Shown here piece after piece: positions 1-64,000 of a stretch of DNA of 64,000 bases. The first letter of the stretch is position 1; each line of letters begins with the position of its first letter. The stretch lies in the NCBI RefSeq assembly GCF_013315695.1, contig NZ_CP054353.1. One strand, 5' to 3'. Source of the stretch: Escherichia coli. Lineage in GTDB: Bacteria; Pseudomonadota; Gammaproteobacteria; Enterobacterales; Enterobacteriaceae. The position numbers and the translations under genes are program-made. The notes beneath the pieces were generated by a model. That model searched no databases. It was not told the DNA's origin and saw nothing but the letters and a program-made list of their open reading frames with translations.

Positions 1-79
1 CACCAGAAAGGCGCTTAAGAAACGGGTGATGCTGCCAACTTACTGATTTAGTGTATGATGGTGTTTTTGAGGTGCTCCA

Positions 80-355
80 GTGGCTTCTGTTTCTATCAGC
101 TGTCCCTCCTGTTCAGCTACTGACGGGGTGGTGCGTAACGGCAAAAGCACCGCCGGACATCAGCGCTATCTCTGCTCTCACTGCCGTAAAACATGGCAAC
201 TGCAGTTCACTTACACCGCTTCTCAACCCGGTACGCACCAGAAAATCATTGATATGGCCATGAATGGCGTTGGATGCCGGGCAACAGCCCGCATTATGGG
301 CGTTGGCCTCAACACGATTTTACGTCACTTAAAAAACTCAGGCCGCAGTCGGTAA
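80..355 (+). CDS. insA: IS1 protein InsA (91 aa)
   Basis: ORF track 91 aa [16 protein letters not shown]...; recognised InsA sequence. Confidence 0.9.
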
Positions 356-777
356 CCTCGCGCATACAGCCGGGCAGTGACGTCATCGTCTGCGCGGAAA
401 TGGACGAACAGTGGGGCTATGTCGGGGCTAAATCGCGCCAGCGCTGGCTGTTTTACGCGTATGACAGGCTCCGGAAGACGGTTGTTGCGCACGTATTCGG
501 TGAACGCACTATGGCGACGCTGGGGCGTCTTATGAGCCTGCTGTCACCCTTTGACGTGGTGATATGGATGACGGATGGCTGGCCGCTGTATGAATCCCGC
601 CTGAAGGGAAAGCTGCACGTAATCAGCAAGCGATATACGCAGCGAATTGAGCGGCATAACCTGAATCTGAGGCAGCACCTGGCACGGCTGGGACGGAAGT
701 CGCTGTCGTTCTCAAAATCGGTGGAGCTGCATGACAAAGTCATCGGGCATTATCTGAACATAAAACACTATCAATAA
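274..777 (+). CDS. insB: IS1 InsB reading frame (167 aa); transposase is made as InsAB by -1 frameshift
   Basis: ORF track 167 aa [16 protein letters not shown]...; overlaps insA 3' end as in IS1. Confidence 0.9.
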
Positions 778-846
778 GTTGGAGTCATTACCGGATTTTC
801 TTAACCCGTACTATACACATAGGGGCAATGATAAAAGGTGGCAAAA

Positions 847-942
847 ATGAATGTTTCCAGTAGAACTGTAGTACTGATAAATGTCTTTGCTGCTGTTGGT
901 TTGTTTACTCTTATCTCTATGAGATTTGGCTGGTTTATTTGA
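847..942 (+). CDS. yncL: Small membrane protein YncL (31 aa)
   Basis: Hand-translated ATG..TGA: MNVSSRTVVLINVFAAVGLFTLISMRFGWFI; position next to patD as in K-12. Confidence 0.6.
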   Translation: MNVSSRTVVLINVFAAVGLFTLISMRFGWFI

Positions 943-1038
943 TGTAGTGATTTTGCACGCAGCACGTACTGTCAGAGAAATCAGTGCTCTGACAGTACGC
1001 AAGATCATCTCATACTCTTACGATCTGCAATATTATCC

Positions 1039-2463
1039 TTAATGTTTAACCATGACGTGGCGGACGACGGTGTAATCCTCCAGCCCATAAAGTGACATAT
1101 CCTTGCCGTAACCAGAAAGTTTCTGCCCACCGTGCGGCATTTCACTTACCAGCATGAAATGGGTATTGACCCAGGTACAACCATATTGCAGCCGCGCGCT
1201 GACGCGATGCGCCCTGCCCACATCTTTCGTCCATACCGAGGATGCAAGTCCGTACTGACTGTCATTCGCCCAGTTCACCACCTGTTCTTCGTTGTCGAAG
1301 AGCGTAACACTCACTACCGGACCAAATACCTCTTTTTGCACGATGGCATCATCCTGTAATGCGCCAGCCAGTAGCGTCGGCGCATAGTAATAGCCATTAC
1401 CCTTGCGCTTTTCACCACCGGTGATCACTTTGATGTGCCCTGTCGCTTTCGCCTCTTCTACCGCCTTGCTGACGCGTTCGAGATGCGCCAGCGAGCTTAA
1501 AGGTCCAAGCTCCGTAGACTCGTCAGCCGGTGCACCCGATTTTAACGTTGCCACCGCAGCACCGAGTTTTTCCACCAGCGTATCGTAAATGCCTTTTTGC
1601 GCGTAGATCCGACAAGCCGCTGTACAATCCTGTCCGGCATTGTAATAGCCAAAAGTACGTACACCTTCGACCACTGCTTCAATATCCGCATCATCAAAAA
1701 CAATCACTGGCGCTTTGCCACCAAGTTCCATATGAGTACGCTTAATCGACGGCGCGGTATGGCTGATGATGTGCTCGCCGGTGGCGATAGAGCCCGTCAG
1801 CGACACCATCCGCACTTTAGGATGTCCGGTCAGCGGATCGCCCACCGTTTTGCCTCTGCCAAACAGTACGTTAATCACGCCTGCCGGGAAGATATCTTTC
1901 GCCAGCTCTGCCAACTTCAACGCGGTCAGCGGGGTAATTTCTGATGGTTTAAGCACTACGCAGTTCCCTGCCGCCAGCGCCGGAGCCAGTTTCCACGCGG
2001 CCATCATCAGCGGATAATTCCACGGTGCGATAGAAGCCACGACCCCCAACGGATCGCGACGGATCATCGAAGTATGACCTTCAAGATATTCACCTGCCGC
2101 CAGACCATTCAGACAGCGCGCCGCACCCGCGAAAAAGCGAAAGACATCGACAATCGCCGGGATTTCATCATTGAACGCACTATGCAGTGGTTTGCCACAA
2201 TTACGGGACTCCAGTTCGGCAAAAACCTGACCATTTTCTTCGATAACATCAGCCAGTTTCAGCAGACATTCCGCACGCACTTTCGGCGTGGTTTGCCCCC
2301 ATTCGGCAAATGCTGCATCTGCCGCGCGCACAGCAGCATCGACCTGCTCTGCGGATGCCTCGGCAATCTCCAGTAAAACGTCCCCCGTTGCCGGATTATA
2401 GACAGGCTGTTTTTCCCCTTCGCCGCTAACCAGTTCTCCGTTAATCAGTAACTTATGTTGCAT
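1039..2463 (-). CDS. patD: Gamma-aminobutyraldehyde dehydrogenase (474 aa)
   Basis: [30 protein letters not shown]...; aldehyde dehydrogenase family, recognised as PatD/YdcW. Confidence 0.9.
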
Positions 2464-12515: not shown

Positions 12516-12516
12516 T

Positions 12517-38597: not shown

Positions 38598-38652
38598 GGT
38601 GATGCTGCCAACTTACTGATTTAGTGTATGATGGTGTTTTTGAGGTGCTCCA

Positions 38653-39505: not shown

Positions 39506-39829
39506 TTATTTCTGTAACCATTTTCCGTTAATGCCCTGCACATATTCTCCTGATTTAGCGCGAGCTACGAGCTTTTGCCCGGCAAGTTTCGCGATATCAT
39601 CTACCGACACATTATTTTGCTTTGCCAGTTGTTGATAGCTCGCTTTACGTTCGGCATTAATGTCGGTTACTAATTTCTCTGTTTCAGCATCTGTTTTCAG
39701 CGCAACCAGATAACCATAAAATGTTTCCCCTACCCGCCCCTGAGTTCTGGCTTCATCCAGAGTCAATGCCATTACATTGCTGCTTACCAAGCCAACAAGA
39801 AATGCACAAAGAAGTAATGTTCTTTTCAT
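39506..39829 (-). CDS. ydbL: DUF1318-family periplasmic protein YdbL (108 aa)
   Basis: Start set at MKRTLLLCAFLVGL; signal peptide. Confidence 0.8.
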   Translation of the reverse strand: MKRTLLLCAFLVGLVSSNVMALTLDEARTQGRVGETFYGYLVALKTDAETEKLVTDINAERKASYQQLAKQNNVSVDDIAKLAGQKLVARAKSGEYVQGINGKWLQK

Positions 39830-48448: not shown

Positions 48449-48476
48449 ATGCTCTGGATAAGGATCATCCAATTCT

Positions 48477-48571
48477 AAAAAAAAGCCCGGACGACGGTTC
48501 GGGCTTGTCTCATTATTTGTTGGATAAACAGTAACAAGGGTCCAACAGAAAATAATCTTTGTGACAATAAA
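48477..48571 (-). ncRNA. micC: MicC small RNA (OmpC-repressing), with its intrinsic terminator
   Basis: Minus-strand GTTATATGCCTTTATTGTCACA... 5' seed, ending in hairpin GCCCGAACCGTCGTCCGGGC plus T-run; between ydbK and ompN as in K-12. Confidence 0.6.
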
Positions 48572-48838
48572 GGCATATAACCCGCGAAGAATAACGCATC
48601 ACTATTTAAATGTATAATTTTTATTTTGTATATGTCGCCAACAATATATTCACCAGACTTATTATCATTTCAGAAGAATTATTTGATTAAGGTTTTACTT
48701 AAGGCGTAACAAATAATATTTATCGTCTAACTGAACTTCTCCTTTAGGATGCTTTCACTCCCCGAAATGGGGATAAAAGGCAAGGTGATGCTGCCAACTT
48801 ACTGATTTAGTGTATGATGGTGTTTTTGAGGTGCTCCA

Positions 48839-49114
48839 GTGGCTTCTGTTTCTATCAGCTGTCCCTCCTGTTCAGCTACTGACGGGGTGGTGCGTAACGG
48901 CAAAAGCACCGCCGGACATCAGCGCTATCTCTGCTCTCACTGCCGTAAAACATGGCAACTGCAGTTCACTTACACCGCTTCTCAACCCGGTACGCACCAG
49001 AAAATCATTGATATGGCCATGAATGGCGTTGGATGCCGGGCAACAGCCCGCATTATGGGCGTTGGCCTCAACACGATTTTACGTCACTTAAAAAACTCAG
49101 GCCGCAGTCGGTAA
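48839..49114 (+). CDS. insA: IS1 InsA
   Basis: Translation identical to copy 1 InsA. Confidence 0.9.
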
Positions 49115-49536
49115 CCTCGCGCATACAGCCGGGCAGTGACGTCATCGTCTGCGCGGAAATGGACGAACAGTGGGGCTATGTCGGGGCTAAATCGCGCCAG
49201 CGCTGGCTGTTTTACGCGTATGACAGGCTCCGGAAGACGGTTGTTGCGCACGTATTCGGTGAACGCACTATGGCGACGCTGGGGCGTCTTATGAGCCTGC
49301 TGTCACCCTTTGACGTGGTGATATGGATGACGGATGGCTGGCCGCTGTATGAATCCCGCCTGAAGGGAAAGCTGCACGTAATCAGCAAGCGATATACGCA
49401 GCGAATTGAGCGGCATAACCTGAATCTGAGGCAGCACCTGGCACGGCTGGGACGGAAGTCGCTGTCGTTCTCAAAATCGGTGGAGCTGCATGACAAAGTC
49501 ATCGGGCATTATCTGAACATAAAACACTATCAATAA
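49033..49536 (+). CDS. insB: IS1 InsB reading frame
   Basis: Translation identical to copy 1 InsB. Confidence 0.9.
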
Positions 49537-49551
49537 GTTGGAGTCATTACC

Positions 49552-50357
49552 TCGATTACGGACGTAATTATGGCGTAATGTACGACATCGAAGGCTGGAC
49601 CGATATGCTGCCTGAATTTGGCGGTGACTCTTATACCAATGCAGACAACTTTATGACTGGTCGTGCCAACGGCGTCGCGACTTATCGTAATACTGATTTC
49701 TTCGGTCTGGTAAATGGTCTGAACTTCGCAGTGCAGTATCAAGGTAACAACGAAGGTGCCAGTAATGGTCAGGAAGGCACCAACAACGGACGTGATGTTC
49801 GCCATGAAAACGGTGACGGCTGGGGTCTTTCCACAACATATGATTTAGGCATGGGCTTTAGCGCTGGTGCGGCATACACCTCATCTGACCGCACCAATGA
49901 CCAGGTTAACCATACTGCGGCAGGTGGTGATAAAGCAGACGCGTGGACTGCTGGGCTAAAATACGATGCTAACAATATTTACCTGGCAACCATGTATTCA
50001 GAAACACGTAACATGACCCCGTTTGGCGACAGCGATTATGCAGTTGCGAACAAAACCCAGAACTTTGAAGTTACTGCACAGTACCAGTTTGATTTTGGTC
50101 TGCGTCCGGCAGTCTCTTTCCTGATGTCTAAAGGCCGTGACCTTCACGCTGCCGGTGGTGCAGACAACCCGGCAGGTGTTGATGATAAAGATCTGGTTAA
50201 ATACGCCGATGTTGGCGCGACTTACTATTTCAACAAAAATATGTCCACCTACGTTGACTATAAAATCAACCTGTTGGATGAAGATGACAGCTTCTACGCT
50301 GCCAACGGCATCTCTACCGATGATATTGTCGCTTTAGGTCTGGTTTATCAGTTCTAA
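49552..50357 (+). pseudogene. ompN: 3' portion of outer membrane porin gene truncated by IS1; ompN by synteny
   Basis: Frame open from the IS1 junction (..[15 protein letters not shown]..) to a porin-type C terminus LGLVYQF; N-terminal ~110 codons and promoter missing. Confidence 0.75.
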
Positions 50358-50964: not shown

Positions 50965-51421
50965 GATTCATTTCGCAAATGTGCTGACATTTTCCCCTCT
51001 AATCCGTACCATACACGCCACAGTTTTTATATCAGATTTCTTATGCTGGGCGTTCCGGCATGACGCATACTCTTCTGATGCCATATAACGAATTGAGTCG
51101 CTTTTAAATGTCGCAAAATCAAGAAATTAGTAAGAAAGAACAATACAACCTGAACAAGTAAGGGCAAAAATCACAACTCTCTGACTCATAAGTATTTTAC
51201 TTATTTTTCAATGTGTTAAATATCATCAGCGACAACAATAAGCTACGATAACCCACTCTTTTTTTGCCCCTTTTTTGCCCCTTTTGCAGCGCTTTGCCCC
51301 ATTTTTGCCATCAACAATTTTCCTCATCAAGTCATTTCAAAGCCTAATAGGTGCCCTACTTTTTTCCTCAGTACCACGTCGCCAGCAGGAAACAACCTAA
51401 TCCCGGTTCGGATCTAAAATT

Positions 51422-51440
51422 GCTAATGATAATCATTTTC
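51422..51440 (+). promoter_or_regulatory. Fur box upstream of sitA
   Basis: GCTAATGATAATCATTTTC versus consensus GATAATGATAATCATTATC. Confidence 0.75.
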
Positions 51441-51462
51441 ATTTTGTATTGCTTATGCTATA

Positions 51463-51484
51463 AAACATAGCCGTTGCTATGTTT
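51463..51484 (+). promoter_or_regulatory. MntR operator upstream of sitA
   Basis: Perfect palindrome AAACATAGC CGTT GCTATGTTT, matching the MntR box form. Confidence 0.7.
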
Positions 51485-51516
51485 GTTCTAATTTTGCTCA
51501 CTATAGGTACTAAATT

Positions 51517-52431
51517 ATGTACTCAATAAAAAAAGTAACCATGCTCTTGGGGTGCCTCGCCCTCACCTGCTCGATCGCATTTCAGGCGAGTGCAACTGAA
51601 AAATTCAAGGTCATTACAACATTTACCATCATCGCAGATATGGCCAAAAACGTGGCTGGAGATGCTGCAGAAGTCTCATCCATAACCAAGCCCGGTGCAG
51701 AAATTCATGAGTATCAGCCTACCCCTGGCGATATTAAACGTGCGCAGGAGGCACAACTGATTCTCGCCAATGGTATGAATCTGGAATTGTGGTTCCAACG
51801 CTTTTACCAGCATCTTAATGGGGTTCCAGAAGTAATTGTCTCTTCGGGTGTGACGCCAGTAGGGATCACTGAAGGCCCCTATGAGGGCAAACCTAACCCC
51901 CATGCCTGGATGTCGCCAGATAATGCTCTGATTTACGTCGATAATATTCGTGATGCGTTGATAAAATACGATCCGGCAAATGCACAAACCTACCAACGTA
52001 ATGCCGATACTTATAAAGCCAAGATTACCCAAACCCTTGCCCCCCTGCGTAAGCAGATTGCTGAACTCCCTGAGAATCAGCGATGGATGGTCACCAGTGA
52101 AGGGGCTTTTTCTTATCTCGCACGCGATTTGGGGCTAAAAGAGCTTTATCTGTGGCCGATTAATGCCGATCAACAAGGCACGCCGCAGCAGGTACGTAAG
52201 GTTGTTGATATGGTGAAGAAAAATCATATCCCGGCAGTCTTTAGCGAGAGTACGATTTCCGATAAACCAGCGCGTCAGGTTGCGCGTGAAACCGGCGCGC
52301 ACTACGGCGGTGTACTCTATGTCGATTCCCTGAGCACAGAAAACGGCCCGGTACCTACGTATATCGACCTTCTGAAGGTTACTACCAGTACGCTGGTACA
52401 GGGAATTAAAGCCGGGAAAAGGGAGAAATAA
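51517..52431 (+). CDS. sitA: Periplasmic Mn/Fe-binding protein of Sit ABC transporter (304 aa)
   Basis: Signal peptide plus metal-binding lipoprotein-9-like sequence; first gene of a four-gene transporter operon. Confidence 0.85.
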
Positions 52432-53258
52432 TGATGCAATCTGCGGGCATTGTCGTTAATGATGTTACTGTCACCTGGCGTAACGGGCACACAGCACTGC
52501 GCGATGCATCCTTCACAGTACCAAGTGGATCTATTGCCGCTCTGGTTGGGGTAAACGGTTCCGGAAAATCGACGTTGTTTAAAGCGATTATGGGATTTGT
52601 GCGTCTGACCAGCGGAAAGATATCTGTTCTGGGTATTCCCACGCGACAGGCGCTACAGAAAAACCTGGTTGCCTACGTCCCTCAGTCAGAAGAGGTTGAC
52701 TGGTCATTTCCTGTACTAGTGGAAGATGTGGTGATGATGGGCCGCTATGGGCACATGGGTATGTTGCGTATAGCCAAAAAGAGGGATCGTCAGATTGTCA
52801 CCGATGCGCTGGAACGTGTCGATATGGTGGATTTTCGCCATCGACAAATCGGCGAGCTTTCCGGTGGACAAAAGAAACGCGTCTTTCTGGCGAGAGCGAT
52901 TGCACAGCAGGGTGATGTGATCCTGCTGGATGAACCTTTTACCGGCGTTGATGTGAAAACCGAAGCGAAAATCATCAGCCTGTTGAGGGAGTTACGCGCG
53001 GAAGGCAAGACGATGCTTGTCTCAACGCACAATCTCGGCTCAGTCACGACATTTTGCGATTATACGGTCATGGTCAAAGGCACCGTCCTGGCAAGCGGGC
53101 CGACAGACACCACTTTTACAGCCGAGAACCTGGAGCTGGCTTTTAGCGGCGTACTGCGCCATGTCACACTTAACGCCTCGGAAGAAAGCATTATTACTGA
53201 CGATGAACACCCTTTTGTGGCACATCGACCGTCAGCGGTGCAGAGGGAAGCAAGATGA
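52431..53258 (+). CDS. sitB: Sit transporter ATP-binding protein (275 aa)
   Basis: Walker [10 protein letters not shown], signature LSGGQKKR, Walker B ILLDEP. Confidence 0.85.
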
Positions 53259-54112
53259 ACGTGCTACTGGAACCCTTCAGCTATGAATATATGCTCAATG
53301 CGATGTGGGTCTCGGCGATGGTCGGCGGTCTCTGCGCTTTCCTGTCATGCTATCTGATGCTAAAAGGCTGGTCGCTGATTGGCGATGCGCTGTCGCACTC
53401 TATTGTCCCGGGTGTTGCGGGGGCATATATGCTGGGGCTTCCGTTTTCTCTGGGAGCCTTCTTTTCCGGCGGACTGGCAGCGGGCAGCATGCTGTTTCTT
53501 AACCAACGCACTCGCTTAAAAGAAGATGCCATCATCGGCCTGATCTTCTCCTCCTTTTTTGGCCTGGGGCTGTTTATGGTGTCATTGAACCCGACATCCG
53601 TGAACATTCAGACCATCGTCCTAGGCAATATTCTGGCAATCGATCCGGCGGATATCCTGCAACTCACTATCATTGGCATTCTCTCGATCATCGTGCTTTT
53701 TTTCAAATGGAAAGATCTTATGGTGACCTTTTTCGACGAGAATCACGCCCGTGCTATTGGATTGCATCCGGGCAGATTAAAAATCCTCTTCTTCACCCTG
53801 CTGTCGGTTTCGACCGTTGCGGCGCTGCAAACGGTTGGTGCCTTTCTGGTGATCTGTCTGGTGGTGACTCCCGGTGCAACAGCATGGTTGTTAACCGATC
53901 GTTTTCCCCGCCTGCTCATAATTGCTGTAACTATTGGCAGTGTAACCAGTTTCCTCGGCGCGTGGGTCAGTTACTTTCTGGACGGCGCGACAGGTGGAAT
54001 CATCGTGGTGGCGCAGACACTGCTGTTTCTTTTAGCATTTGTATTTGCGCCCACCCATGGGCTTTTGGCAAATCGTCGGCGTGCGCATAAAGCGCTGGAG
54101 GATCGCTCATGA
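53255..54112 (+). CDS. sitC: Sit transporter permease (285 aa)
   Basis: Multi-pass membrane ORF overlapping sitB end. Confidence 0.85.
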
Positions 54113-54966
54113 TGGCATTATTACTGGAGCCACTGCAGTTCACCTTTATGAGTCACGCACTGCTGATTTCACTGGTAGTTTCCATACCCTGTGCGCTGCT
54201 GTCGGTCTTTCTGGTCCTGAAAGGTTGGGCACTGATGGGTGACGCGATGAGTCATGCGGTTTTTCCTGGCATCGTGCTTGCCTGGATTCTGGGGTTACCT
54301 CTGGCTACAGGGGCATTTATCGCCGGAGTATTCTGCGCGGTGGCGACGGGATACCTGAAAGACAACAGCCGAATCAAGCAAGATACAGTGATGGGGATTG
54401 TTTTTTCTGGCATGTTTGCCGCAGGTCTGATCTTGTATATTGCAGTCAAACCAGACATACATCTTGACCATATTCTTTTCGGCGACATGCTCGGGGTAAC
54501 CATCGGCGATATAATCCAGACGATGATTATTGCCGGGCTGGTTACACTTGTTATTAGCGTAAAATGGCGGGATTTTTTGCTGTTCAGCTTTGATTATCAA
54601 CAGGCGCAGGTAAGCGGTTTGCATACGCGATGGCTGCATTATGGGCTGCTGTGCATGGTTTCCCTGACCATTGTGGCGACGCTGAAAGCAGTAGGTATCA
54701 TTCTCTCCATTTCTCTGCTCATTGCGCCTGGCGCCATTGCGGTACTCCTGACACAACGCTTTCATATTGCACTCCTACTGGCGACTGGCATATCGGTAAT
54801 AGTCTCAATGACTGGTGTTTGGCTGTCCTTTTTTATCGACAGCGCACCCGCTCCGACGATTGTCGTCTTATTCGCGGTTGTGTTCATCATGACGTTTACC
54901 GTTATCAGTTTCAACGCACGCACAAAGGGAAACGCTCATAGACAGGATCTGTTATCCCCCAATTAG
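54109..54966 (+). CDS. sitD: Sit transporter permease (285 aa)
   Basis: Multi-pass membrane ORF overlapping sitC end. Confidence 0.85.
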   Translation: MMALLLEPLQFTFMSHALLISLVVSIPCALLSVFLVLKGWALMGDAMSHAVFPGIVLAWILGLPLATGAFIAGVFCAVATGYLKDNSRIKQDTVMGIVFSGMFAAGLILYIAVKPDIHLDHILFGDMLGVTIGDIIQTMIIAGLVTLVISVKWRDFLLFSFDYQQAQVSGLHTRWLHYGLLCMVSLTIVATLKAVGIILSISLLIAPGAIAVLLTQRFHIALLLATGISVIVSMTGVWLSFFIDSAPAPTIVVLFAVVFIMTFTVISFNARTKGNAHRQDLLSPN

Positions 54967-55417
54967 CACAACATCCGAGGGCAGCATTGTCCGCTAGTAC
55001 ACTGCAGTCCAGAAAGTCATGGGCGGACGTTGGGAGGAGGCGCTAATCCTTTCATACAAAAAATATGTAAAATCAATAACGGCTGTAAATCATTCAATAC
55101 TCGCACTATCGGAAGTTCACCAGCCAGCCGCAGCACGTTCTTGCATACGACGTGTCTGCGGTTTCAACTTCACCAGTCCACCAATCACGATGGACAGTGC
55201 CAAGACAGCACTAGCAAAAACAGGAAATTAGCAGTCTCAGCAGAACACCGACCAGACGGTGAAGAAACAAAAAAGGATACGCAAAGGGGCCGCAGTTCCC
55301 GATTGATAAAAAAGCCAGCTTATGCGCTTTTTTTTCATGTATTATTAAGTATTGGTTAGCGTCTTTTTAATCAGAACTTTAAAGACAAGCCATTTGTAAG
55401 AAAACCGACAGATTCGG

Positions 55418-56233
55418 TTGACAAGCAGGAGTAATACTTTGGACATAAGAAAAGATTTGGAATCAGTAGCCCAATATATAAGTAGACTGTTATCGATAGG
55501 GTACGAATTTAGCCGTTTTGATAAAGACTGGGTCCATTTAAAAAATGAAGAGGATTTTCGTTTTATTTCAAGAATACCATTTGCAACACGGAATAAAGTG
55601 GAAGCAGTATATGCGGAAGGCAGAGATATGGCACTTTATATGTCTGATGAGTTACTATCCATTAATAGTGATTTCAGTAAATTTCCAACGTTGACAGCTA
55701 TTATCGAAAGATTCAAGGACACTTGGGTTTATGGTAATTATGATTCGGAAGTGCCAAATATAGCTAAAAAAACATGCGAAGAAAATGCAGTTCAGCTTTG
55801 GTCTGTAGAACAGATGTGTTCCTTATTCAAAAAGCAAGAACAACTATTAGCAGCAGTACGTATCACATTGCAGATGCTACAAGATAGTGACCTATACAAG
55901 ATGGAGAATGGTTTACCTCTTATGAAACAAGAAGCTAATATTCATGTCAGTGGAATTTCCGGTTCTAGTATCAATATACATTCTTCAGGTGCTACGGCAA
56001 CTACTACGACAAATTATAATGAGCCCACAATATTTAATGAAATGATTGAGGCAATAAAATCGAAAAACTTTGATGGCGCGACAGAATCACACCTTATAGA
56101 TAATGTACAGGCACTGGCAGCCAGTCACCAAAGCGGCTGTTTTAAAGAAGCATATAAGGACTTTATTAATAATGTATCTGCACACATTACAGTATTTACT
56201 CCATTTCTTGCTGGCATATCATCTTTACTATAA
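55418..56233 (+). CDS. Hypothetical protein, AT-rich orphan ORF (271 codons from TTG; a TTG at 55439 has better Shine-Dalgarno spacing)
   Basis: Long open frame in a visibly low-GC segment; AGGAG at 55427..55431; no family recognised; Ser/Thr-rich linker SGISGSSINIHSSGATATTTTN. Confidence 0.55.
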   Translation: MTSRSNTLDIRKDLESVAQYISRLLSIGYEFSRFDKDWVHLKNEEDFRFISRIPFATRNKVEAVYAEGRDMALYMSDELLSINSDFSKFPTLTAIIERFKDTWVYGNYDSEVPNIAKKTCEENAVQLWSVEQMCSLFKKQEQLLAAVRITLQMLQDSDLYKMENGLPLMKQEANIHVSGISGSSINIHSSGATATTTTNYNEPTIFNEMIEAIKSKNFDGATESHLIDNVQALAASHQSGCFKEAYKDFINNVSAHITVFTPFLAGISSLL

Positions 56234-56778
56234 AATAAGTGACAGATACATTAATACATAACGAAAAATCTTTTTAGCTACTCATTCATATCAATAGTGC
56301 CCTACCATAGGGCACATTATTCGTGGAACTCGTTTATGACAAAAGAATTTTGATGGTCTGCCTGATGCAACAGATATAATTCTGGGAGTGTTGAGTAAGA
56401 GTATTCACCGGCGCTCAACACAAATGCCAGCAAGCACGAGAAAGAGCAGGTAAGCCTGAGTGTTCAGGAAATGTTTGAAAAGGCTAATATGTGGCTGGTT
56501 TCAGATTAAACGCCTTGAACCGTCATATTACTTAAGTACAATCCGCCTAGACTAGCAATCATTCAATAGTAGCACTATCGAGCGCTCGCCAGTCGAGCGC
56601 AATCATGCTCCTTGCATACGGCGTGCAGCATATCACAAAACGATTACGCCATGACGGACTGCAGGCTACTCAATATCTGGCTCGATTAGCGTATTGGCAT
56701 GATTTAACAGACCCCGGCGCTTATTCCCAGCAACCTGAAGCGGCACCTCTTCCTGTGTTGCGTTTACAACTCCCTTTT

Positions 56779-57087
56779 TCACCCACGATTAACCAACAGC
56801 CAGACCAGCAGACAAGCCACCACCGGCACAGAAAAATCCATCAGGCTTGCCACATCCCACACGCGCGGATCAAAACCACCCCACCACGGCATATTCATAC
56901 GCTTGCCATGCCCGAACATTTCAATCCAGCGATATTCTGCCTGGGTATGTTCACGAGCAATGAAGAACGTACAACCGGCTATCGCCCCGTAAGCCCAGTT
57001 TCCGGTAAAAAGACCAACCAGTACCTGCGCAGCCACAGCACAAAGTGCATGAAGGAAAGGTGTTATATCCATTTTCATCCTACCCAA
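56779..57087 (-). CDS. Hypothetical small membrane protein (102 aa; may start at MKMDITPF, 57075)
   Basis: Two hydrophobic segments (AVAAQVLVGLF..., VPVVACLLVWLLV); overlapping plus-strand 161-aa ORF is low-complexity. Confidence 0.5.
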   Translation of the reverse strand: MGRMKMDITPFLHALCAVAAQVLVGLFTGNWAYGAIAGCTFFIAREHTQAEYRWIEMFGHGKRMNMPWWGGFDPRVWDVASLMDFSVPVVACLLVWLLVNRG

Positions 57088-57148
57088 TAAAACGAGGCGC
57101 TCGGCCCCTTAATATTATTTAGACGCAAGCGTCGGTAATGACTCCAAC

Positions 57149-57652
57149 TTATTGATAGTGTTTTATGTTCAGATAATGCCCGATGACTTTGTCATGCAGC
57201 TCCACCGATTTTGAGAACGACAGCGACTTCCGTCCCAGCCGTGCCAGGTGCTGCCTCAGATTCAGGTTATGCCGCTCAATTCGCTGCGTATATCGCTTGC
57301 TGATTACGTGCAGCTTTCCCTTCAGGCGGGATTCATACAGCGGCCAGCCATCCGTCATCCATATCACCACGTCAAAGGGTGACAGCAGGCTCATAAGACG
57401 CCCCAGCGTCGCCATAGTGCGTTCACCGAATACGTGCGCAACAACCGTCTTCCGGAGCCTGTCATACGCGTAAAACAGCCAGCGCTGGCGCGATTTAGCC
57501 CCGACATAGCCCCACTGTTCGTCCATTTCCGCGCAGACGATGACGTCACTGCCCGGCTGTATGCGCGAGGTTACCGACTGCGGCCTGAGTTTTTTAAGTG
57601 ACGTAAAATCGTGTTGAGGCCAACGCCCATAATGCGGGCTGTTGCCCGGCAT
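57149..57652 (-). CDS. insB: IS1 InsB reading frame
   Basis: Translation identical to copy 1 InsB. Confidence 0.9.
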
Positions 57653-57846
57653 CCAACGCCATTCATGGCCATATCAATGATTTTCTGGTGCGTACCGGGT
57701 TGAGAAGCGGTGTAAGTGAACTGCAGTTGCCATGTTTTACGGCAGTGAGAGCAGAGATAGCGCTGATGTCCGGCGGTGCTTTTGCCGTTACGCACCACCC
57801 CGTCAGTAGCTGAACAGGAGGGACAGCTGATAGAAACAGAAGCCAC
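57571..57846 (-). CDS. insA: IS1 InsA
   Basis: Translation identical to copy 1 InsA. Confidence 0.9.
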
Positions 57847-57925
57847 TGGAGCACCTCAAAAACACCATCATACACTAAATCAGTAAGTTGGCAGCATCAC
57901 CCCCGGCGTTAAGGGGAGAGATAAG

Positions 57926-58060
57926 ATGGTGCATTACGAAGTAGTTCAGTATTTGATGGATTGTTGCGGTATCACTTACAACCAGGCTGTGCAGGCTTTA
58001 CGCAGCAACGCCTGGGATCTCTGGCAGGCAGAAGTCGCTATACGTAGCAACAAGATGTGA
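57926..58060 (+). CDS. ydaG: Rac prophage small protein, YdaG-like (44 aa)
   Basis: Hand-translated MVHYEVVQYLMDCCGITYNQAVQALRSNAWDLWQAEVAIRSNKM; name assigned from length and position. Confidence 0.5.
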   Translation: MVHYEVVQYLMDCCGITYNQAVQALRSNAWDLWQAEVAIRSNKM

Positions 58061-58070
58061 GATTCGCAAA

Positions 58071-58226
58071 ATGCAAAAAATCGACCTCGGCAACAACGAA
58101 TCCCTGGTGTGCGGCGTGTTCCCCAACCAGGATGGAACGTTCACTGCCATGACGTATACCAAAAGCAAAACATTTAAAACCGAAACTGGTGCGCGCCGAT
58201 GGTTGGAGAAGCACACAGTAAGCTAA
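58071..58226 (+). CDS. ydaF: Rac prophage small protein, YdaF-like (51 aa)
   Basis: Hand-translated MQKIDLGNNESLVCGVFPNQDGTFTAMTYTKSKTFKTETGARRWLEKHTVS. Confidence 0.5.
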   Translation: MQKIDLGNNESLVCGVFPNQDGTFTAMTYTKSKTFKTETGARRWLEKHTVS

Positions 58227-58711
58227 CGATTAAAACGTCTACTCCTGCTGTTCCAGAATAACTTCATAAAATGGGAGTATTTTTCGGTGACGAGATAATA
58301 AGAACAGTTTGCGCTATCACTCTGATGTTGAATGATGCCCTTCCGTTCTAATTTTTTCATAACCGGGTTACGGCAAGGAGAAGTGATAATAAGATTTCCT
58401 GTTTTAAGGAAATCTTTAAATACAGCGATTTCTTTCTCAGATAAACGAAGCAATACTCGTTGCTCTGGTAGTAATGAATAATGCTTTTGAATATGTGCTC
58501 GCAATCTTGAGAAGGAAATGGCGACCACGAAAGAAAAGGCAAAAACGATAATCTGAAAGAGCCAAGGTATTTCAGTATAAGCATTGAATGCGACAGTAAA
58601 CTCTTTCGGTATCAGCCAGAGAGTGAGACCAAAAATGATAATCGTATACATAAGTCTTTCGAGTGGCTCGTTAGCAAAAAGTTTCAATAATGGAGTAGAT
58701 ACATCCAACAT
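58223..58711 (-). CDS. sieB: Superinfection exclusion protein B, Rac prophage (162 aa)
   Basis: Start set at MLDVSTPLLKLFANEPLERLMYTIIIFGL within longer track ORF. Confidence 0.8.
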   Translation of the reverse strand: MLDVSTPLLKLFANEPLERLMYTIIIFGLTLWLIPKEFTVAFNAYTEIPWLFQIIVFAFSFVVAISFSRLRAHIQKHYSLLPEQRVLLRLSEKEIAVFKDFLKTGNLIITSPCRNPVMKKLERKGIIQHQSDSANCSYYLVTEKYSHFMKLFWNSRSRRFNR

Positions 58712-59151
58712 ATCAATAACTCTCAACTGTAAGGGTATTGAAATGTTAACACAAGCTCTCGCTGTAGGGGTATAGCCGAGACCACCGAAGCCCGGAGGTG
58801 GTGAAATAAAACCGGGCACAACACGAAGGCGCATTTCCGATATCCATAAAGAGTCGGTCTTGTCTGTTAAATTTAAATGGTGGGAGTGCGCCTCCGGTTG
58901 TAAATAACGACATTGCTGTGTGTAGTCCTGGCGGCATCAGTTTTTTCTTGAAGTTCGGCTGATGTCCGCCCTTTTTTAAGTGAATTTTGTGATGCGGTGA
59001 ATGCGGCTAAGCGCACGTGGCACAGTTAAAAGTCATGTTAGTCCTTATTGGTTTGGGTGGGAAAGCCGACTGTAATTGTTAACTGGTTGCAGTCACCTGG
59101 AGGCACCAGGCACCGCATCAACAAAGTTCATTTGTAAAAATGGAGATAATT

Positions 59152-59373
59152 ATGATTGCACATCACTTCGGAACTGATGAAATACCACGTCAGTGTGTGA
59201 CTCCTGGCGATTATGTTCTTCATGAAGGCCGGACATATATTGCCTCGGCAAACAATATTAAAAAGCGAAAACTATATATTCGTAACCTGACCACAAAAAC
59301 ATGCATTACTGACCGCATGATTAAAGTCTTCCTCGGTCGTGATGGTTTACCTGTAAAGGCGGAGTCATGGTGA
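59152..59373 (+). CDS. kilR: Cell-division inhibitor KilR, Rac prophage (73 aa)
   Basis: [38 protein letters not shown]... Confidence 0.8.
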
Positions 59374-59543
59374 TGACTAAGAAAATAAAATGTGCTTACC
59401 ACCTTTGCAAAAAAGACGTTGAAGAAAGCAAAGCTATTGAAAGAATGCTTCACTTCATGCACGGGATTTTATCAAAAGACGAACCGAGAAAATATTGCAG
59501 TGAATCTTGTGCCGAAAAAGACCAGATGGCACATGAACTTTAA
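59373..59543 (+). CDS. ydaE: Rac prophage small zinc-finger-like protein YdaE (56 aa)
   Basis: Hand-translated [56 protein letters not shown]; start overlaps kilR stop. Confidence 0.6.
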   Translation: MTKKIKCAYHLCKKDVEESKAIERMLHFMHGILSKDEPRKYCSESCAEKDQMAHEL

Positions 59544-59617
59544 TTAATTGACTATTCGAAACTGAATTTATGCCAGAAATGGCAGGTATTCGCTCAACCT
59601 TAATTAAGGAGAAAAAC

Positions 59618-59893
59618 ATGATTACCAATTATGAAGCCACTGTTGTAACTACCGATGACATTGTTCACGAGGTGAATCTGGAAGGAAAGCGCATTGGCTA
59701 CGTAATTAAAACAGAAAATAAAGAAACCCCATTCACTGTGGTTGATATCGATGGTCCATCAGGCAACGTAAAAACACTTGATGAAGGTGTCAAAAAAATG
59801 TGCCTGGTGCATATCGGAAAGAATCTGCCCGCAGAAAAAAAAGCCGAATTTCTGGCAACTCTAATTGCAATGAAATTAAAAGGTGAAATCTGA
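59618..59893 (+). CDS. racC: Rac prophage protein RacC (91 aa)
   Basis: Start set at MITNYEATVVTTDDIVHEVNLEGKRIGYVIK. Confidence 0.75.
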   Translation: MITNYEATVVTTDDIVHEVNLEGKRIGYVIKTENKETPFTVVDIDGPSGNVKTLDEGVKKMCLVHIGKNLPAEKKAEFLATLIAMKLKGEI

Positions 59894-59994
59894 AAGAAAT
59901 AGCCTGCGTATGGCGCAGGCTATGAACAGTGTGTATCCGGCAAGATCATTCACTGAACAAAACGAATTTTAATCTGAGTTGAGGTTAAAAAACA

Positions 59995-62595
59995 ATGAGC
60001 ACAAAACCACTCTTCCTGTTACGGAAAGCGAAAAAATCATCCGGTGAACCTGACGTCGTCCTGTGGGCAAGCAACGATTTTGAATCGACCTGTGCCACTC
60101 TGGACTACCTGATCGTTAAGTCAGGTAAAAAACTGAGCAGCTATTTTAAAGCTGTTGCCACGAATTTTCCTGTCGTTAATGACCTGCCCGCTGAAGGTGA
60201 GATCGATTTTACCTGGAGTGAACGCTATCAACTCAGCAAAGACTCCATGACATGGGAACTAAAACCGGGAGCAGCACCAGACAACGCTCACTATCAAGGC
60301 AATACCAACGTCAACGGCGAAGACATGACTGAGATTGAGGAGAATATGCTACTCCCAATTTCTGGCCAGGAACTGCCCATTCGTTGGCTTGCTCAACACG
60401 GCAGCGAAAAACCGGTAACGCACGTTTCACGCGACGGACTCCAGGCATTACACATTGCTCGGGCTGAAGAACTACCGGCTGTTACTGCCCTGGCTGTTTC
60501 CCACAAAACCAGCCTGCTCGACCCGCTGGAAATTCGCGAACTCCACAAACTGGTTCGTGACACTGACAAAGTTTTCCCTAATCCTGGTAATTCAAACCTG
60601 GGACTGATAACTGCTTTTTTCGAAGCATACCTGAACGCTGACTACACCGATCGAGGACTGCTGACAAAAGAGTGGATGAAGGGTAATCGTGTTTCACACA
60701 TCACTCGCACGGCTTCCGGTGCTAATGCTGGCGGCGGAAACCTCACCGATCGCGGCGAAGGTTTCGTACACGATCTGACGTCACTGGCGCGCGACGTAGC
60801 CACTGGCGTACTGGCCCGTTCAATGGATCTGGACATCTATAACCTTCATCCGGCACACGCTAAACGCATTGAGGAAATTATCGCTGAAAATAAACCGCCC
60901 TTTTCTGTTTTCCGCGACAAATTCATCACCATGCCTGGCGGGCTGGATTATTCCCGCGCCATCGTGGTTGCGTCCGTAAAAGAAGCACCAATTGGGATCG
61001 AGGTCATCCCCGCGCACGTCACTGAATATCTGAACAAAGTACTGACTGAAACCGATCATGCCAACCCTGATCCGGAAATCGTGGATATTGCCTGCGGTCG
61101 CTCCTCTGCCCCGATGCCGCAGCGAGTAACAGAAGAAGGAAAACAGGATGATGAAGAAAAACCGCAACCATCTGGAACAACGGCAGTTGAACAGGGAGAG
61201 GCTGAAACAATGGAACCGGACGCAACTGAACATCATCAGGACACGCAGCCGCTGGATGCTCAGTCACAGGTAAATTCTATTGATGCGAAATATCAGGAAC
61301 TGCGGGCAGAACTCCATGAAGCCCGGAAAAACATTCCATCAAAAGATCCTGTCGATGCCGATAAATTGCTTGCTGCATCACGTGGTGAATTTGTTGACGG
61401 AATTAGCGACCCGAACGATCCGAAATGGGTAAAGGGGATCCAGACTCGCGATTGTGTGTACCAGAACCAGCCAGAAACGGAAAAAACCAGCCCGGATATG
61501 AATCAACCTGAGCCAGTAGTGCAACAGGAACCGGAAATAGCCTGCAATGCCTGCGGCCAGACTGGCGGGGATAACTGCCCTGACTGTGGTGCGGTGATGG
61601 GCGACGCAACATACCAGGAAACATTCGATGAAGAGAGTCAGGTTGAAGCTAAGGAAAATGATCCGGAGGAAATGGAAGGCGCTGAACATCCGCACAATGA
61701 GAATGCTGGCAGCGATCCGCATCGCGATTGCAGTGATGAAACTGGCGAAGTCGCAGATCCCGTAATCGTAGAAGACATAGAGCCAGGTATTTATTACGGA
61801 ATTTCGAATGAGAATTACCACGCGGGTCCCGGTGTCAGTAAGTCTCAGCTCGATGACATTGCTGATACTCCGGCACTATATTTGTGGCGTAAAAATGCCC
61901 CCGTTGACACCACAAAGACAAAAACGCTCGATTTAGGAACCGCTTTCCACTGCCGGGTACTTGAACCGGAAGAATTCAGTAACCGCTTTATCGTAGCACC
62001 TGAATTTAACCGCCGTACAAACGCCGGAAAAGAAGAAGAGAAAGCGTTTCTGATGGAATGCGCAAGCACAGGAAAAACAGTTATCACTGCGGAAGAAGGC
62101 CGGAAAATTGAACTCATGTATCAAAGCGTTATGGCTTTGCCGCTGGGGCAATGGCTTGTTGAAAGCGCCGGACACGCTGAATCATCAATTTACTGGGAAG
62201 ATCCTGAAACAGGAATTTTGTGTCGGTGCCGTCCGGACAAAATTATCCCTGAATTTCACTGGATCATGGACGTGAAAACTACGGCGGATATTCAACGATT
62301 CAAAACCGCTTATTACGACTACCGCTATCACGTTCAGGATGCATTCTACAGTGACGGTTATGAAGCACAGTTTGGAGTGCAGCCAACTTTCGTTTTTCTG
62401 GTTGCCAGCACAACTATTGAATGCGGACGTTATCCGGTTGAAATTTTCATGATGGGCGAAGAAGCAAAACTGGCAGGTCAACAGGAATATCACCGCAATC
62501 TGCGAACCCTGTCTGACTGCCTGAATACCGATGAATGGCCAGCTATTAAGACATTATCACTGCCCCGCTGGGCTAAGGAATATGCAAATGACTAA
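59995..62595 (+). CDS. recE: Exodeoxyribonuclease VIII (RecE), full-length 866 aa
   Basis: 866-aa ORF with acidic central region and C-terminal nuclease domain; directly followed by overlapping recT. Confidence 0.9.
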
Positions 62596-63397
62596 GCAAC
62601 CACCAATCGCAAAAGCCGATCTGCAAAAAACTCAGGGAAACCGTGCACCAGCAGCAGTTAAAAATAGCGACGTGATTAGTTTTATTAACCAGCCATCAAT
62701 GAAAGAGCAACTGGCAGCAGCTCTTCCACGCCATATGACGGCTGAACGTATGATCCGTATCGCCACCACAGAAATTCGTAAAGTTCCGGCGTTAGGAAAC
62801 TGTGACACTATGAGTTTTGTCAGTGCGATCGTACAGTGTTCACAGCTCGGACTTGAGCCAGGTAGCGCCCTCGGTCATGCATATTTACTGCCTTTTGGTA
62901 ATAAAAACGAAAAGAGCGGTAAAAAGAACGTTCAGCTAATCATTGGCTATCGCGGCATGATTGATCTGGCTCGCCGTTCTGGTCAAATCGCCAGCCTGTC
63001 AGCCCGTGTTGTCCGTGAAGGTGACGAGTTTAGCTTCGAATTTGGCCTTGATGAAAAGTTAATACACCGCCCGGGAGAAAACGAAGATGCCCCGGTTACC
63101 CACGTCTATGCTGTCGCAAGACTGAAAGACGGAGGTACTCAGTTTGAAGTTATGACGCGCAAACAGATTGAGCTGGTGCGCAGCCTGAGTAAAGCTGGTA
63201 ATAACGGGCCGTGGGTAACTCACTGGGAAGAAATGGCAAAGAAAACGGCTATTCGTCGCCTGTTCAAATATCTGCCCGTATCAATTGAGATCCAGCGTGC
63301 AGTATCAATGGATGAAAAGGAACCACTGACAATCGATCCTGCAGATTCCTCTGTATTAACCGGGGAATACAGTGTAATCGATAATTCAGAGGAATAA
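62588..63397 (+). CDS. recT: Single-strand annealing protein RecT (269 aa)
   Basis: Start set at [28 protein letters not shown]; overlaps recE stop (ATGACTAA). Confidence 0.9.
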
Positions 63398-63453
63398 TTC
63401 AGCCTGGCGGTGTAATGCACCGCCAACTTGAAATATTTTTTATGAGAAAAATT

Positions 63454-63648
63454 ATGAGATATGACAATGTTAAACCATGTCCATTTTGTGGTTGTCCATC
63501 AGTAACGGTGAAAGTCATTTCAGGATATTACCGAGCGAAGTGTAACGGATGCGAATCCCGAACCGGTTATGGTGGAAGTGAAAAAGAAGCACTCGAAAGA
63601 TGGAATAAACGAACCACTGGAAATAATAACGGAGGTGTTCATGTATAA
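63454..63648 (+). CDS. ralR: Restriction alleviation protein RalR/Lar (64 aa)
   Basis: Start set at MRYDNVKPCPFCGCPSVTVKV; Cys-rich motif. Confidence 0.7.
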   Translation: MRYDNVKPCPFCGCPSVTVKVISGYYRAKCNGCESRTGYGGSEKEALERWNKRTTGNNNGGVHV

Positions 63649-63829
63649 AATTACCGCCACTATTGAAAAGGAAGGTGGCACTCCTACTAACTGGACAAGA
63701 TATTCAAAATCTAAACTAACGAAATCAGAATGCGAAAAAATGCTCTCAGGTAAAAAAGAAGCAGGCGTTTCCAGAGAGCAGAAAGTAAAACTGATAAATT
63801 TTAATTGCGAGAAACTTCAGTCCTCGTGA
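63641..63829 (+). CDS. ydaC: Rac prophage protein YdaC (62 aa)
   Basis: Start set at MYKITATIEKEGGTPTNW, overlapping ralR stop. Confidence 0.6.
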   Translation: MYKITATIEKEGGTPTNWTRYSKSKLTKSECEKMLSGKKEAGVSREQKVKLINFNCEKLQSS

Positions 63830-63928
63830 ATTGCATTGTATTCAAATTAAAACTTCATAGCTGATTATTAATAATCAACATCGGGCGTCAATTTCAGTCT
63901 AACATTGGCGCCTGCCAGAGGTGATGCG

Positions 63929-64000
63929 ATGGCACAAGTAATCTTTAATGAAGAGTGGATGGTTGAATACGGCCTGATGCTTCGCACTGGTCTGGGGGCC
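63929..64000 (+). CDS. xisR: Rac prophage excisionase-like protein, 5' partial (runs off window end)
   Basis: ATG at 63929: MAQVIFNEEWMVEYGLMLRTGLGA... Confidence 0.5.
   Translation, partial: MAQVIFNEEWMVEYGLMLRTGLGA

Follow-up and report, generated by a model that had tools for sequence, protein, structure and literature searches.

The window, a stretch of 64 kb of Escherichia coli chromosome analysed over its whole length, holds four copies of IS1, none of them flanked by the short direct repeat that an IS1 insertion normally makes. We asked how these copies came to lie between their present flanks. A preliminary description had read them as junctions of deletion or recombination rather than as simple insertions, and had taken four such junctions in 64 kb as a sign of Shigella-like genome reduction. 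In the reading that we favour, the four IS1 copies are of the active type and stem from a recent burst within a single E. coli lineage, and each is a deletion scar; we give this joint reading a probability of roughly 0.85. The mechanism and its outcome, IS1-associated deletion, are already well established and are known biology.

The window extends from patD to a Rac-like prophage, at about 32 min of the chromosome, and is collinear with near-identical genomes, being 99.99% identical to that of MSB1_4I. Losses were measured against MS 21-1 (5.30 Mb), which is 99.95% identical to the window in the same order and orientation and has no IS1 in this region. MSB1_4I and AF3 served as sister genomes.

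IS1 copies and their flanks

The four elements are as follows:

25..792, plus strand: IS1 copy 1, full 768-bp element; replaces 236 bp of MS 21-1
38598..39365, plus strand: IS1 copy 2, full 768-bp element; replaces 9,236 bp of MS 21-1
48784..49551, plus strand: IS1 copy 3, full 768-bp element; its right end (IRR) is the exact starting point of a deletion
57134..57901, minus strand (inverted): IS1 copy 4, full 768-bp element; bridges two prophage segments

The preliminary description had placed four copies with identical ORF translations at these positions; each is 768 bp long, and every base is identical among them (100% nucleotide identity). Because all copies are identical, IS1 activity appears to have been recent. 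The 23-nt left terminal repeat (IRL) occurred exactly four times in the window versus 0 expected from shuffles, and the two terminal repeats are imperfect (GGTGATGCTGCCAACTTACTGAT versus GGTAATGACTCCAACTTATTGAT, 18 of 23 positions matching). The insA gene starts at nt 56 of the element and specifies 91 aa, while an A6C frameshift motif (AAAAAAC) at nt 307 leads, by −1 fusion, to InsAB' of 232 aa. The transposase matched NCBIfam NF033558, 'IS1 family transposase': the InsB part scored 145.8 bits (cutoff 100) and the InsA part 91.3 bits, the latter also matching the IS1/IS1595 zinc domain. RefSeq labels the identical sequence 'IS1A family transposase, programmed frameshift'. The elements belong to the IS1 family, as size, terminal repeats, insA/insB' frameshift and profile match all fit.

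Exact re-inspection upheld the earlier statement that no copy carries a target duplication. No duplication of 8-9 bp was found at any of the four window copies, at any offset, and among pairs of 9-mers located up to 15 nt from the IS1 ends the best match at any copy was 5/9. The 9-mers that abut the element on the left and right differed in each case: TAAGAAACG and GGATTTTCT at copy 1, CGCTTCGTT and ACTTGAACC at copy 2, AAAAGGCAA and TCGATTACG at copy 3, and GCAAGCGTC and CCCGGCGTT at copy 4. The window includes just 24 nt to the left of copy 1; the remainder of that flank was taken from the near-identical MSB1_4I. When both orientations were searched, no window copy had a flank that paired with one of a different copy. 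We rejected inversion and an exchange of flanks, as the missing duplication halves were not present at the other copies and the window is collinear with MS 21-1.

Simple IS1 insertions in the clade do carry 9-bp duplications. These were found at the copy 3 site in the sister genomes and at five other sites; examples in the clade include GGCATTTAC (mcbR/pqqU), CGGCGTATT (ompN in AF14 and AF10), AAAAAACAA and CGCTTTGTG. The usual causes of missing duplications are adjacent deletion and recombination between IS copies (PMC11708052).

DNA missing at each copy

As judged by alignment with IS1-free MS 21-1 and the sister genomes, the gaps at copies 1-3 begin and end exactly at the element, and copy 4 joins non-adjacent prophage DNA. 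The earlier reading of duplication-less copies as deletion or recombination junctions was thereby supported for all four, the flanking DNA having been lost rather than simply interrupted. The genes lost or truncated are ortT, ydbD, bigA, pdxI and ompN. We searched 5,426 genomes with junction-specific sequences of copies 1, 2 and 4, each made up of 300 nt of flank and 150 nt of IS1, and found both junctions of each copy only in MSB1_4I and AF3. These two are complete assemblies that were produced independently (Australia and UK), and the three copies' junctions are identical in both.

Copy 3 is represented in both a before and an after state. The features at this site are:

48469..48584, minus strand: MicC sRNA gene, intact (Rfam RF00121, 104 bits), 199 nt left of IS1 copy 3
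48775..48783, plus strand: AAAAGGCAA, the surviving left half of the original 9-bp duplication, which flanks both ends of copy 3 in MSB1_4I and AF3
49552..50357, plus strand: ompN remnant without promoter, start codon and first 328 nt

In MSB1_4I and AF3, copy 3 has a perfect 9-bp duplication and ompN is intact, the original insertion point lying 34 nt upstream of the ompN start codon. Relative to these genomes, the window lacks 362 bp, starting exactly at the right IS1 end; relative to MS 21-1, it lacks 353 bp (5' ompN), bounded exactly by the IS1 ends. The extent of the ompN truncation follows from coordinates, position 49552 corresponding to position 23076 of MSB1_4I piece L002, in which ompN occupies 22271-23404. 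Since the sister genomes keep both the duplication and an intact ompN, the insertion came first and the 362-bp deletion from the right end came later. On this comparison of genomes, copy 3 passed through a duplication-bearing state before the deletion. The deletion junction was absent from all complete RefSeq E. coli genomes, such that the window alone has it and no independent assembly does.

Two further ideas about ompN were discarded. The 259-aa ORF at this junction was uninformative as a test of it, as the product occurs in thousands of assemblies in which ompN is split for other reasons. IS1 was present in the pfo-ompN-uspF interval of 18 unrelated genomes, at differing positions in the four inspected; about 19 would be expected by chance, given about 12 chromosomal IS1 per genome, and a site-specific IS1 hotspot at ompN was rejected.

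The loss at copy 1 affects a single annotated gene:

1..24, minus strand: what is left of the 3' end of ortT, an orphan toxin gene; directly borders IS1 copy 1 on the left

The missing 236 bp correspond to MS 21-1 2614168-2614403 (5' ortT and the ortT-yncL spacer) and are bounded exactly by the IS1 ends. The first ~92 nt of ortT are gone together with the upstream region, and in MSB1_4I and AF3 a 78-nt ortT fragment at this copy is annotated 'missing N-terminus'. The gene is intact in MS 21-1, AF14 and K-12.

Copy 2 marks the largest loss of backbone DNA:

38220..38597, minus strand: the 3' 378 nt of ydbD (DUF2773), directly left of IS1 copy 2; annotated 'missing N-terminus' in MSB1_4I and AF3
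39366..39829, minus strand: right flank of copy 2, comprising 140 nt of the ydbL-bigA spacer and then ydbL (39506-39829)

Here, 9,236 bp are missing (MS 21-1 2567124-2576359), again bounded exactly by the IS1 ends. They held the bigA/ydbA autotransporter gene, pdxI and the 5' 1.9 kb of ydbD, which is full length (2.3 kb) in MS 21-1. The spacer to the right of copy 2 is identical in MS 21-1 and has no match in K-12. Alignment of the flanks to K-12, as had been proposed, also revealed a loss at this junction, but of 30.9 kb. The feaR-feaB-tynA-paaZ..paaY block is already absent from IS1-free MS 21-1, AF14, AF10 and strain 7/2, so just 9.2 kb is attributable to the copy 2 junction. K-12 was dropped as the reference for copy 2 because all IS1-free close relatives lack this block; such a distant reference inflates the apparent IS-mediated loss about threefold.

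Copy 4 lies within a prophage:

51158..64000, no strand assigned: decayed prophage at ttcA, continuing about 1.4 kb beyond the window end; absent from MS 21-1

The element joins the right-end cargo of the prophage (sitABCD at 51517-54966, a hypothetical gene, a dinI-like gene and a second hypothetical gene) to a Rac-like left arm (ydaG, ydaF, sieB, kilR, racC, recE, recT and others), and these segments are non-adjacent in every IS1-free relative. The left flank of copy 4 runs on into tail-fibre genes in AF14, AF10 and strain 7/2, and the right flank runs on into racR in K-12 Rac. A loss of at least 1.2 kb is proven from AF14, and K-12 Rac and strain 7/2, used as references, put the full loss at an estimated 13-45 kb. 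The prophage has lost its lytic and structural core and kept the sitABCD cargo and recET arm. Strain 7/2 has a full lambdoid prophage whose right end corresponds to the sit side; the opposite end, at rspB, is a Qin-like and not a Rac-like arm, and strain 7/2 was rejected as the direct ancestor of the window's sit prophage. The AF14/AF10 sub-lineage carries a second, independent IS1-bounded prophage deletion with other end points and the opposite IS orientation.

Origin of the deletions

In the mechanism that we propose, IS1 would first insert normally, making a 9-bp duplication. One end of the resident element would later attack a nearby site on the same chromosome by intramolecular replicative transposition ('IS1 adjacent deletion'). 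Everything from the IS end to the attacked site would be lost together with one half of the duplication, and IS1 would stay in place. We infer that the transposase, rather than homologous recombination, made the deletions. Copies 1, 2 and 4 probably took the same two-step path as copy 3. No duplication-bearing intermediate for these three was found among the 5,426 genomes, so this history is drawn by analogy. Of four IS1 copies sampled at random elsewhere in MSB1_4I, two likewise had no duplications and abutted truncated bcsE/bcsR and papF.

The rival that survives best is RecA recombination between two IS1 in direct repeat, one at each breakpoint, leaving one hybrid IS1 with mixed flanks. This would yield exactly the same final sequence and, because all copies are identical, no hybrid signature separates it from adjacent deletion. 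Identical IS1 copies are many and locally dense (four in 64 kb here; five in 84 kb of MSB1_4I), and recombination has been named as a frequent cause of missing duplications (PMC11708052). Copy 1 of the sister genomes carries two variant bases that copy 1 of the window does not, and their homogenisation in the window hints at exchange between IS1 copies. Against this, copy 3 would need an extra, unobserved IS1 in the same orientation 353 bp away, followed by its loss, and a second IS1 at the far breakpoints was found in no genome of the collection searched. Very short deletions (236 and 353 bp) are also more economically explained as single intramolecular events. We therefore consider RecA recombination possible but rather unlikely.

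A one-step origin, in which a new IS1 arrives together with the deletion and never has a duplication (the 'IS-del' type discussed for IS150 and IS5), appears improbable. It would agree with the failure to find intermediates for copies 1, 2 and 4, and IS movements tied to duplication-less deletions have been reported (PMC11708052). However, it is directly excluded for copy 3, for which a duplication-bearing precursor exists, and the cases from the long-term evolution experiment (LTEE) are themselves classed as adjacent deletions (PMC11708052). Moreover, with only five complete genomes from the clade, missing intermediates are to be expected.

Assembly artefact, in which a repeated 768-bp element caused contigs to be joined wrongly or to collapse, is very improbable. 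IS copies are classic points of mis-assembly, the copy 3 junction is unique to the window, and the absence of the sisters' two variants from copy 1 could reflect polishing with reads from other copies. Nevertheless, the junctions of copies 1, 2 and 4 recur in two independent complete genomes, the window is otherwise collinear at 99.99% identity, and a mis-join would not cleanly remove 362 bp of unique sequence from an IS end. Finally, simple insertions with duplications that point mutation has since erased, or that had an unusual length, are scarcely credible: nothing beyond the bare absence of repeats favours them, every site physically lacks DNA that near-identical genomes have, no partial repeat exceeded 5/9 at any offset, and flanks otherwise 99.95-100% identical to those of relatives leave no time for decay.

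IS1 load and comparison with known systems

Among complete genomes, the nearest are from E. coli and measure 5.27-5.48 Mb, with about 5,300-5,500 annotated features. The relatives came from a rectal swab, colon and blood cultures and carry pap/iha; on these grounds they are ExPEC-like (extraintestinal pathogenic). A search of the literature on the strain names found nothing relevant.

MSB1_4I and AF3 each contain at least 39 IS1 copies, and at least 40 IS1 pieces are listed in each of MSB1_4I, AF3, AF14 and AF10; MS 21-1 has 18 copies, and the median across genomes is about 10. In MSB1_4I, six 50-kb stretches drawn at random (300 kb) contained four copies, corresponding to about 13 per Mb and about 70 in total; resting on four events, this estimate spans roughly 20-180 copies, with a floor of 39. 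The genome-wide count that had been suggested, estimated here for this sister genome, is thus raised and still well below that of Shigella, whose chromosomes have 229-348 IS insertions (PMC7373316), the counts here being of IS1 alone.

The inference of Shigella-like reduction from four junctions in 64 kb proved overstated, the relatives having genomes of the size given above and a modest IS1 load. According to that inference, the cluster reflects IS-driven shrinkage of the whole genome in a host-restricted lineage. The expansion of IS1 in the four relatives speaks for it, as do the deletion scars at about half of the inspected IS1 copies, the inclusion of bcs, pap, eut and ompN among the IS1-affected genes of the clade, and the finding that IS1 expansion is otherwise known only from EIEC (enteroinvasive E. 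coli) and Shigella (PMC7373316). However, the genomes are no smaller than that of IS1-poorer MS 21-1, the sampled IS1 number is far below the Shigella range, backbone loss in the window is only 9.8 kb, and ent/fep, cit, deo and a prophage are intact in the sampled MSB1_4I regions. Shigella-type reduction is accordingly a doubtful reading to which we give little weight, and four scars in 64 kb do not alone indicate it.

A further reading, which we offer tentatively, is that the window strain, MSB1_4I, AF3, AF14 and AF10 may form an ExPEC-like or commensal clade early in an ongoing IS1 burst, on a degradative trajectory like that of Shigella and EIEC that is starting outside the invasive pathotype. 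Its basis is the dozens of identical IS1 copies, about half of which have already become deletion scars, the insertions and deletions that differ between isolates 99.99% identical, and the IS1-affected genes for cellulose (bcs), P fimbriae (pap), eut functions and a porin (ompN). The sister genomes preserve step-by-step intermediates. The window provides a worked example in which a missing target duplication marked an IS-associated deletion in four of four cases. The raised IS1 activity of the lineage could interest those who track IS bursts in clinical E. coli.

Reif and Saedler (1975) reportedly described adjacent or replicative deletions promoted by IS1 in the gal region, and Turlan and Chandler (1995) are said to have described such deletions among the intramolecular rearrangements of IS1. 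As in these classical cases, the window retains IS1 with both ends, a deletion runs from one IS end to a nearby site, one half of the 9-bp duplication is lost, and the deletions measure from hundreds of bp up to several kb; here, the events are deduced from natural isolates' sequences, not laboratory selection. The E. coli B LTEE similarly yielded simple insertions with duplications and deletion-associated copies without them, although there the element is IS150, as against IS1 in the present clinical or commensal lineage (PMC11708052). The lineage shares with Shigella and EIEC (PMC7373316) the multiplication of an IS1 variant already resident in the chromosome, and the inactivation of genes for surface and metabolic functions by insertions and by IS-bounded deletions; unlike there, copy number is several-fold lower, the genome has not shrunk and, within the regions examined, there is no sign of pINV-type invasive biology. 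Lastly, the ttcA prophage resembles decayed cryptic prophages (K-12 Rac and sitABCD lambdoid prophages) in being cut to an int-xis-recET-kilR-sieB arm plus right-end cargo, and differs from them in that its internal deletion is bounded by IS1.

IS1 copies and reference genomes

The IS1 copies examined here are deletion scars, and the E. coli lineage carrying them has undergone a recent burst of IS1. The window belongs to the 32-min region of the E. coli chromosome, in the orientation opposite to K-12 (gene order patD-ydcSTUV-ydcR ... trg ... hrpA-azoR-ynbDCBA, ydbL-ydbH-ldhA-pfo, ompN-uspF, prophage at ttcA), and contains four IS1 copies:

25-792, + strand, IS1 copy 1, 768 bp
38598-39365, + strand, IS1 copy 2, 768 bp
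48784-49551, + strand, IS1 copy 3, 768 bp
57134-57901, - strand, IS1 copy 4, 768 bp

The copies are 100% identical, base by base; as the preliminary description held, none has a target duplication. Within the window there are four occurrences of the 23-nt left terminal repeat, compared with none in shuffled sequence, and the terminal repeats match at 18 of 23 positions. The element, which matches NCBIfam NF033558, has an insA of 91 aa and an A6C slippery motif at nt 307, with a -1 shift giving the 232-aa InsAB' product; it is a canonical IS1. The 9-mers abutting each copy differ, and no direct repeat matching at more than 5 of 9 positions was found within 15 nt of the ends of any of the four copies. 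Flank pairing between different copies of the window was also looked for, and none was found.

Few complete RefSeq genomes reach 99% or higher identity to the window: MSB1_4I (rectal swab, Australia), AF3, AF14 and AF10 (blood cultures, UK), and MS 21-1 (colon, USA), all of 5.27-5.48 Mb. MSB1_4I and AF3, the sister genomes, are 99.99% identical to the window, and copies 1, 2 and 4 are common to all three, base for base. MS 21-1 (99.95% identity) has zero IS1 across the region and was thus used as the empty-site reference. The window is collinear with it apart from the IS1 gaps, which rules out inversion or transposition of the flanks.

Three further differences from K-12 were observed. At window ~8117-8194, in the yncJ-ydcR interval, hicB is reduced to a 78-nt fragment and ~617 bp of K-12 (hicA and most of hicB) are gone at a junction without an IS. 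This state also occurs in the IS1-free MS 21-1, and the hicA/hicB toxin-antitoxin loss is IS-independent. The gapC ORF ('gap', 333 aa; window 24955-25956), a pseudogene in K-12, is intact, and the IS609 found in K-12 between ydcL and ydcO is absent (~12514/12515).

DNA lost at each copy

Losses at copies 1-3 were sized by alignment to MS 21-1, using its annotation. Copy 1 stands in place of 236 bp, comprising the first ~92 nt of ortT (orphan toxin) and the spacer that leads to yncL. At copy 2, 9,236 bp are gone: the bigA/ydbA autotransporter gene (which already has a frameshift in MS 21-1), pdxI and the 5' 1.9 kb of ydbD, of which a 378-nt stub is left. With K-12, the reference first suggested, the apparent gap at copy 2 was 30.9 kb. 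The feaR, feaB, tynA and paa genes are not between ydbL and bigA in MS 21-1, AF14, AF10 or strain 7/2. Because none of these relatives has an IS1 at the copy 2 site, the absence of these genes is an older polymorphism, not made by copy 2.

Copy 3 stands in place of 353 bp of MS 21-1: the ompN promoter region and ompN nt 1-328. In MSB1_4I and AF3, it occurs at the same position, 34 nt 5' of an intact ompN, with a perfect 9-bp duplication, AAAAGGCAA, on both sides. The window keeps the left 9-mer (48775-48783) and lacks the 362 bp found 3' of the right IS end in the sisters, namely the second 9-mer, 25 nt of the leader and 328 nt of ompN. This difference sets the order: a normal insertion came first, and the deletion, which begins precisely where the right end of the IS1 lies, came second. 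MicC, directly left of copy 3, is intact. The window's copy 3 junction was not found in any complete RefSeq genome, which argues that the deletion step is strain-specific and recent.

In the pfo-ompN-uspF interval (window 48449-50932), IS1 occurs at differing positions in 18 unrelated E. coli genomes, approximately the number expected by chance. Thousands of assemblies have a called 259-aa C-terminal OmpN ORF, with ompN split there without any IS; the gene seems to be often inactivated in E. coli.

With no prophage at ttcA in MS 21-1, copy 4 had to be compared with other genomes. Its right flank (ydaG, ydaF, sieB, kilR, racC, recE, recT) shares 99.7% identity with K-12 Rac and there runs on into racR. 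In AF14 and AF10, its left flank (sitABCD, hypothetical, dinI-like, hypothetical) runs into a tail-fibre gene with no IS between, and in strain 7/2 into a complete lambdoid tail, head and lysis gene set. Because both flanks continue elsewhere in these genomes, copy 4 joins two prophage segments that are non-adjacent in every IS1-free relative. At least 1.2 kb is proven to have been lost in the window's lineage; judged against Rac and strain 7/2, the loss was probably 13-45 kb.

In the AF14/AF10 prophage, truncated recE is joined to the tail-fibre side by another IS1, which is oppositely oriented and has no duplication (the AF14/AF10 IS1 copies of this region are at L010 17606-18373 and 8665-9432, with L011 equivalents). 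Compared with the window, these two genomes retain an extra 1.2 kb at one side of the IS1 and are 3.1 kb shorter at the other. The sit prophage has thus been trimmed on two independent occasions by IS1-bounded deletions.

The prophage remnant (window 51158-64000 and beyond) still has sitABCD, for iron/manganese uptake, and its recET/kilR/sieB arm, with no immunity, replication, lysis or structural gene left. The integrase carries a frameshift in MSB1_4I and AF3, whereas AF14 and AF10 have an intact one. In strain 7/2 (NZ_CP023820.1; L012/L013), the sit prophage spans uspF to rspB. Its far end is therefore on the Qin-prophage side of the terminus region, implying that two lambdoid prophages have undergone a large rearrangement with each other in this strain.

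Origin of the deletions

Classical IS1 adjacent deletion would best explain the window's scars. One end of a resident IS1 would attack a target a short way along the same chromosome, and the DNA between that end and the target would be lost, along with one copy of the duplication. This mechanism was reportedly described by Reif and Saedler in 1975 and by Turlan and Chandler in 1995. Missing duplications are frequently due to adjacent deletions and to recombination between identical ISs (PMC11708052). The main rival is RecA recombination between two IS1 copies in the same orientation, which has the same end product and is possible for copies 1, 2 and 4. At copy 3 it is less economical than adjacent deletion, as a further insertion, not observed, would be required 353 bp away. 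A search of 5,426 genomes for the junctions of copies 1, 2 and 4 returned only MSB1_4I and AF3, with no intermediate. Assembly error at these three copies is unlikely, as they are present in two independent complete assemblies.

In this clade, duplications of 9 bp flank simple IS1 insertions at mcbR/pqqU, upstream of ompN, inside ompN (AF14, AF10), at rcdB/yhjB and at eutS/eutP, and every IS1 without one adjoins truncated genes (ortT', ydbD', ompN', recE', bcsE'/bcsR', papF'). The proposal that IS1 copies without duplications mark deletion junctions, not simple insertions, is borne out by the DNA gone at copies 1-3 and the join at copy 4. Three IS1 copies of MSB1_4I outside the window lie at notable loci:

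L019 19491-20258, deletion scar between truncated bcsE and bcsR (cellulose)
L020 17821-18588, deletion scar 3' of truncated papF (P fimbriae)
L021 10655-11422, simple insertion between eutS and eutP

Only MSB1_4I has a fifth IS1, lying between mcbR and pqqU (L001 7011-7778, beginning and ending ~3.4-4.2 kb before the window) and flanked by a perfect 9-bp duplication, GGCATTTAC; AF3, AF14 and MS 21-1 lack it. IS1 is therefore still mobile among isolates 99.99% identical. AF14 and AF10 have their own IS1 inside ompN (duplication CGGCGTATT), and their ynbA is split by an IS3-family element.

Copy 1 has C100T and A262T in both sisters (MSB1_4I L001 11233-12000; AF3 L008 10273-11040) and neither in the window, where it is the same as the other three copies. 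The AF14/AF10 copies share A262T and add G444T. The window's copy 1 sequence suggests gene conversion between IS1 copies in its strain, or polishing with reads from other copies.

IS1 load and comparison with Shigella

IS1 has clearly expanded in this lineage: MSB1_4I, AF3, AF14 and AF10 have at least 40 IS1 pieces each, versus a median of ~10 places per genome; the chromosome of MS 21-1 has 18 copies. In six 50-kb samples drawn at random from MSB1_4I there were four IS1 copies, all identical to the window's, or ~13 per Mb, which extrapolates to ~70 copies with a wide error. The window's density (4 per 64 kb) is several-fold above this rate; given ~80 windows of this size in each genome, it makes no compelling case for a cluster.

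The scars are real and ordinary, and their biology is already known. Their value is modest, as a clean natural before/after example of IS1 insertion followed by deletion, and as a pointer to a clade in which IS1 activity is ongoing.

The preliminary description had likened the window to the IS-driven genome reduction of Shigella. Its mechanistic inference, IS1-linked deletion, was right, but its evolutionary framing was overstated. The window lost 9.8 kb of backbone and gained 3.1 kb of IS1, and the lineage's genomes (5.27-5.28 Mb versus 5.30 Mb for MS 21-1) are not reduced. Shigella chromosomes contain 229-348 IS insertions, the E. coli median is 32 total IS, and IS1 expansion is otherwise found in EIEC only (PMC7373316). 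The lineage is thus at the high end for E. coli and far below Shigella.
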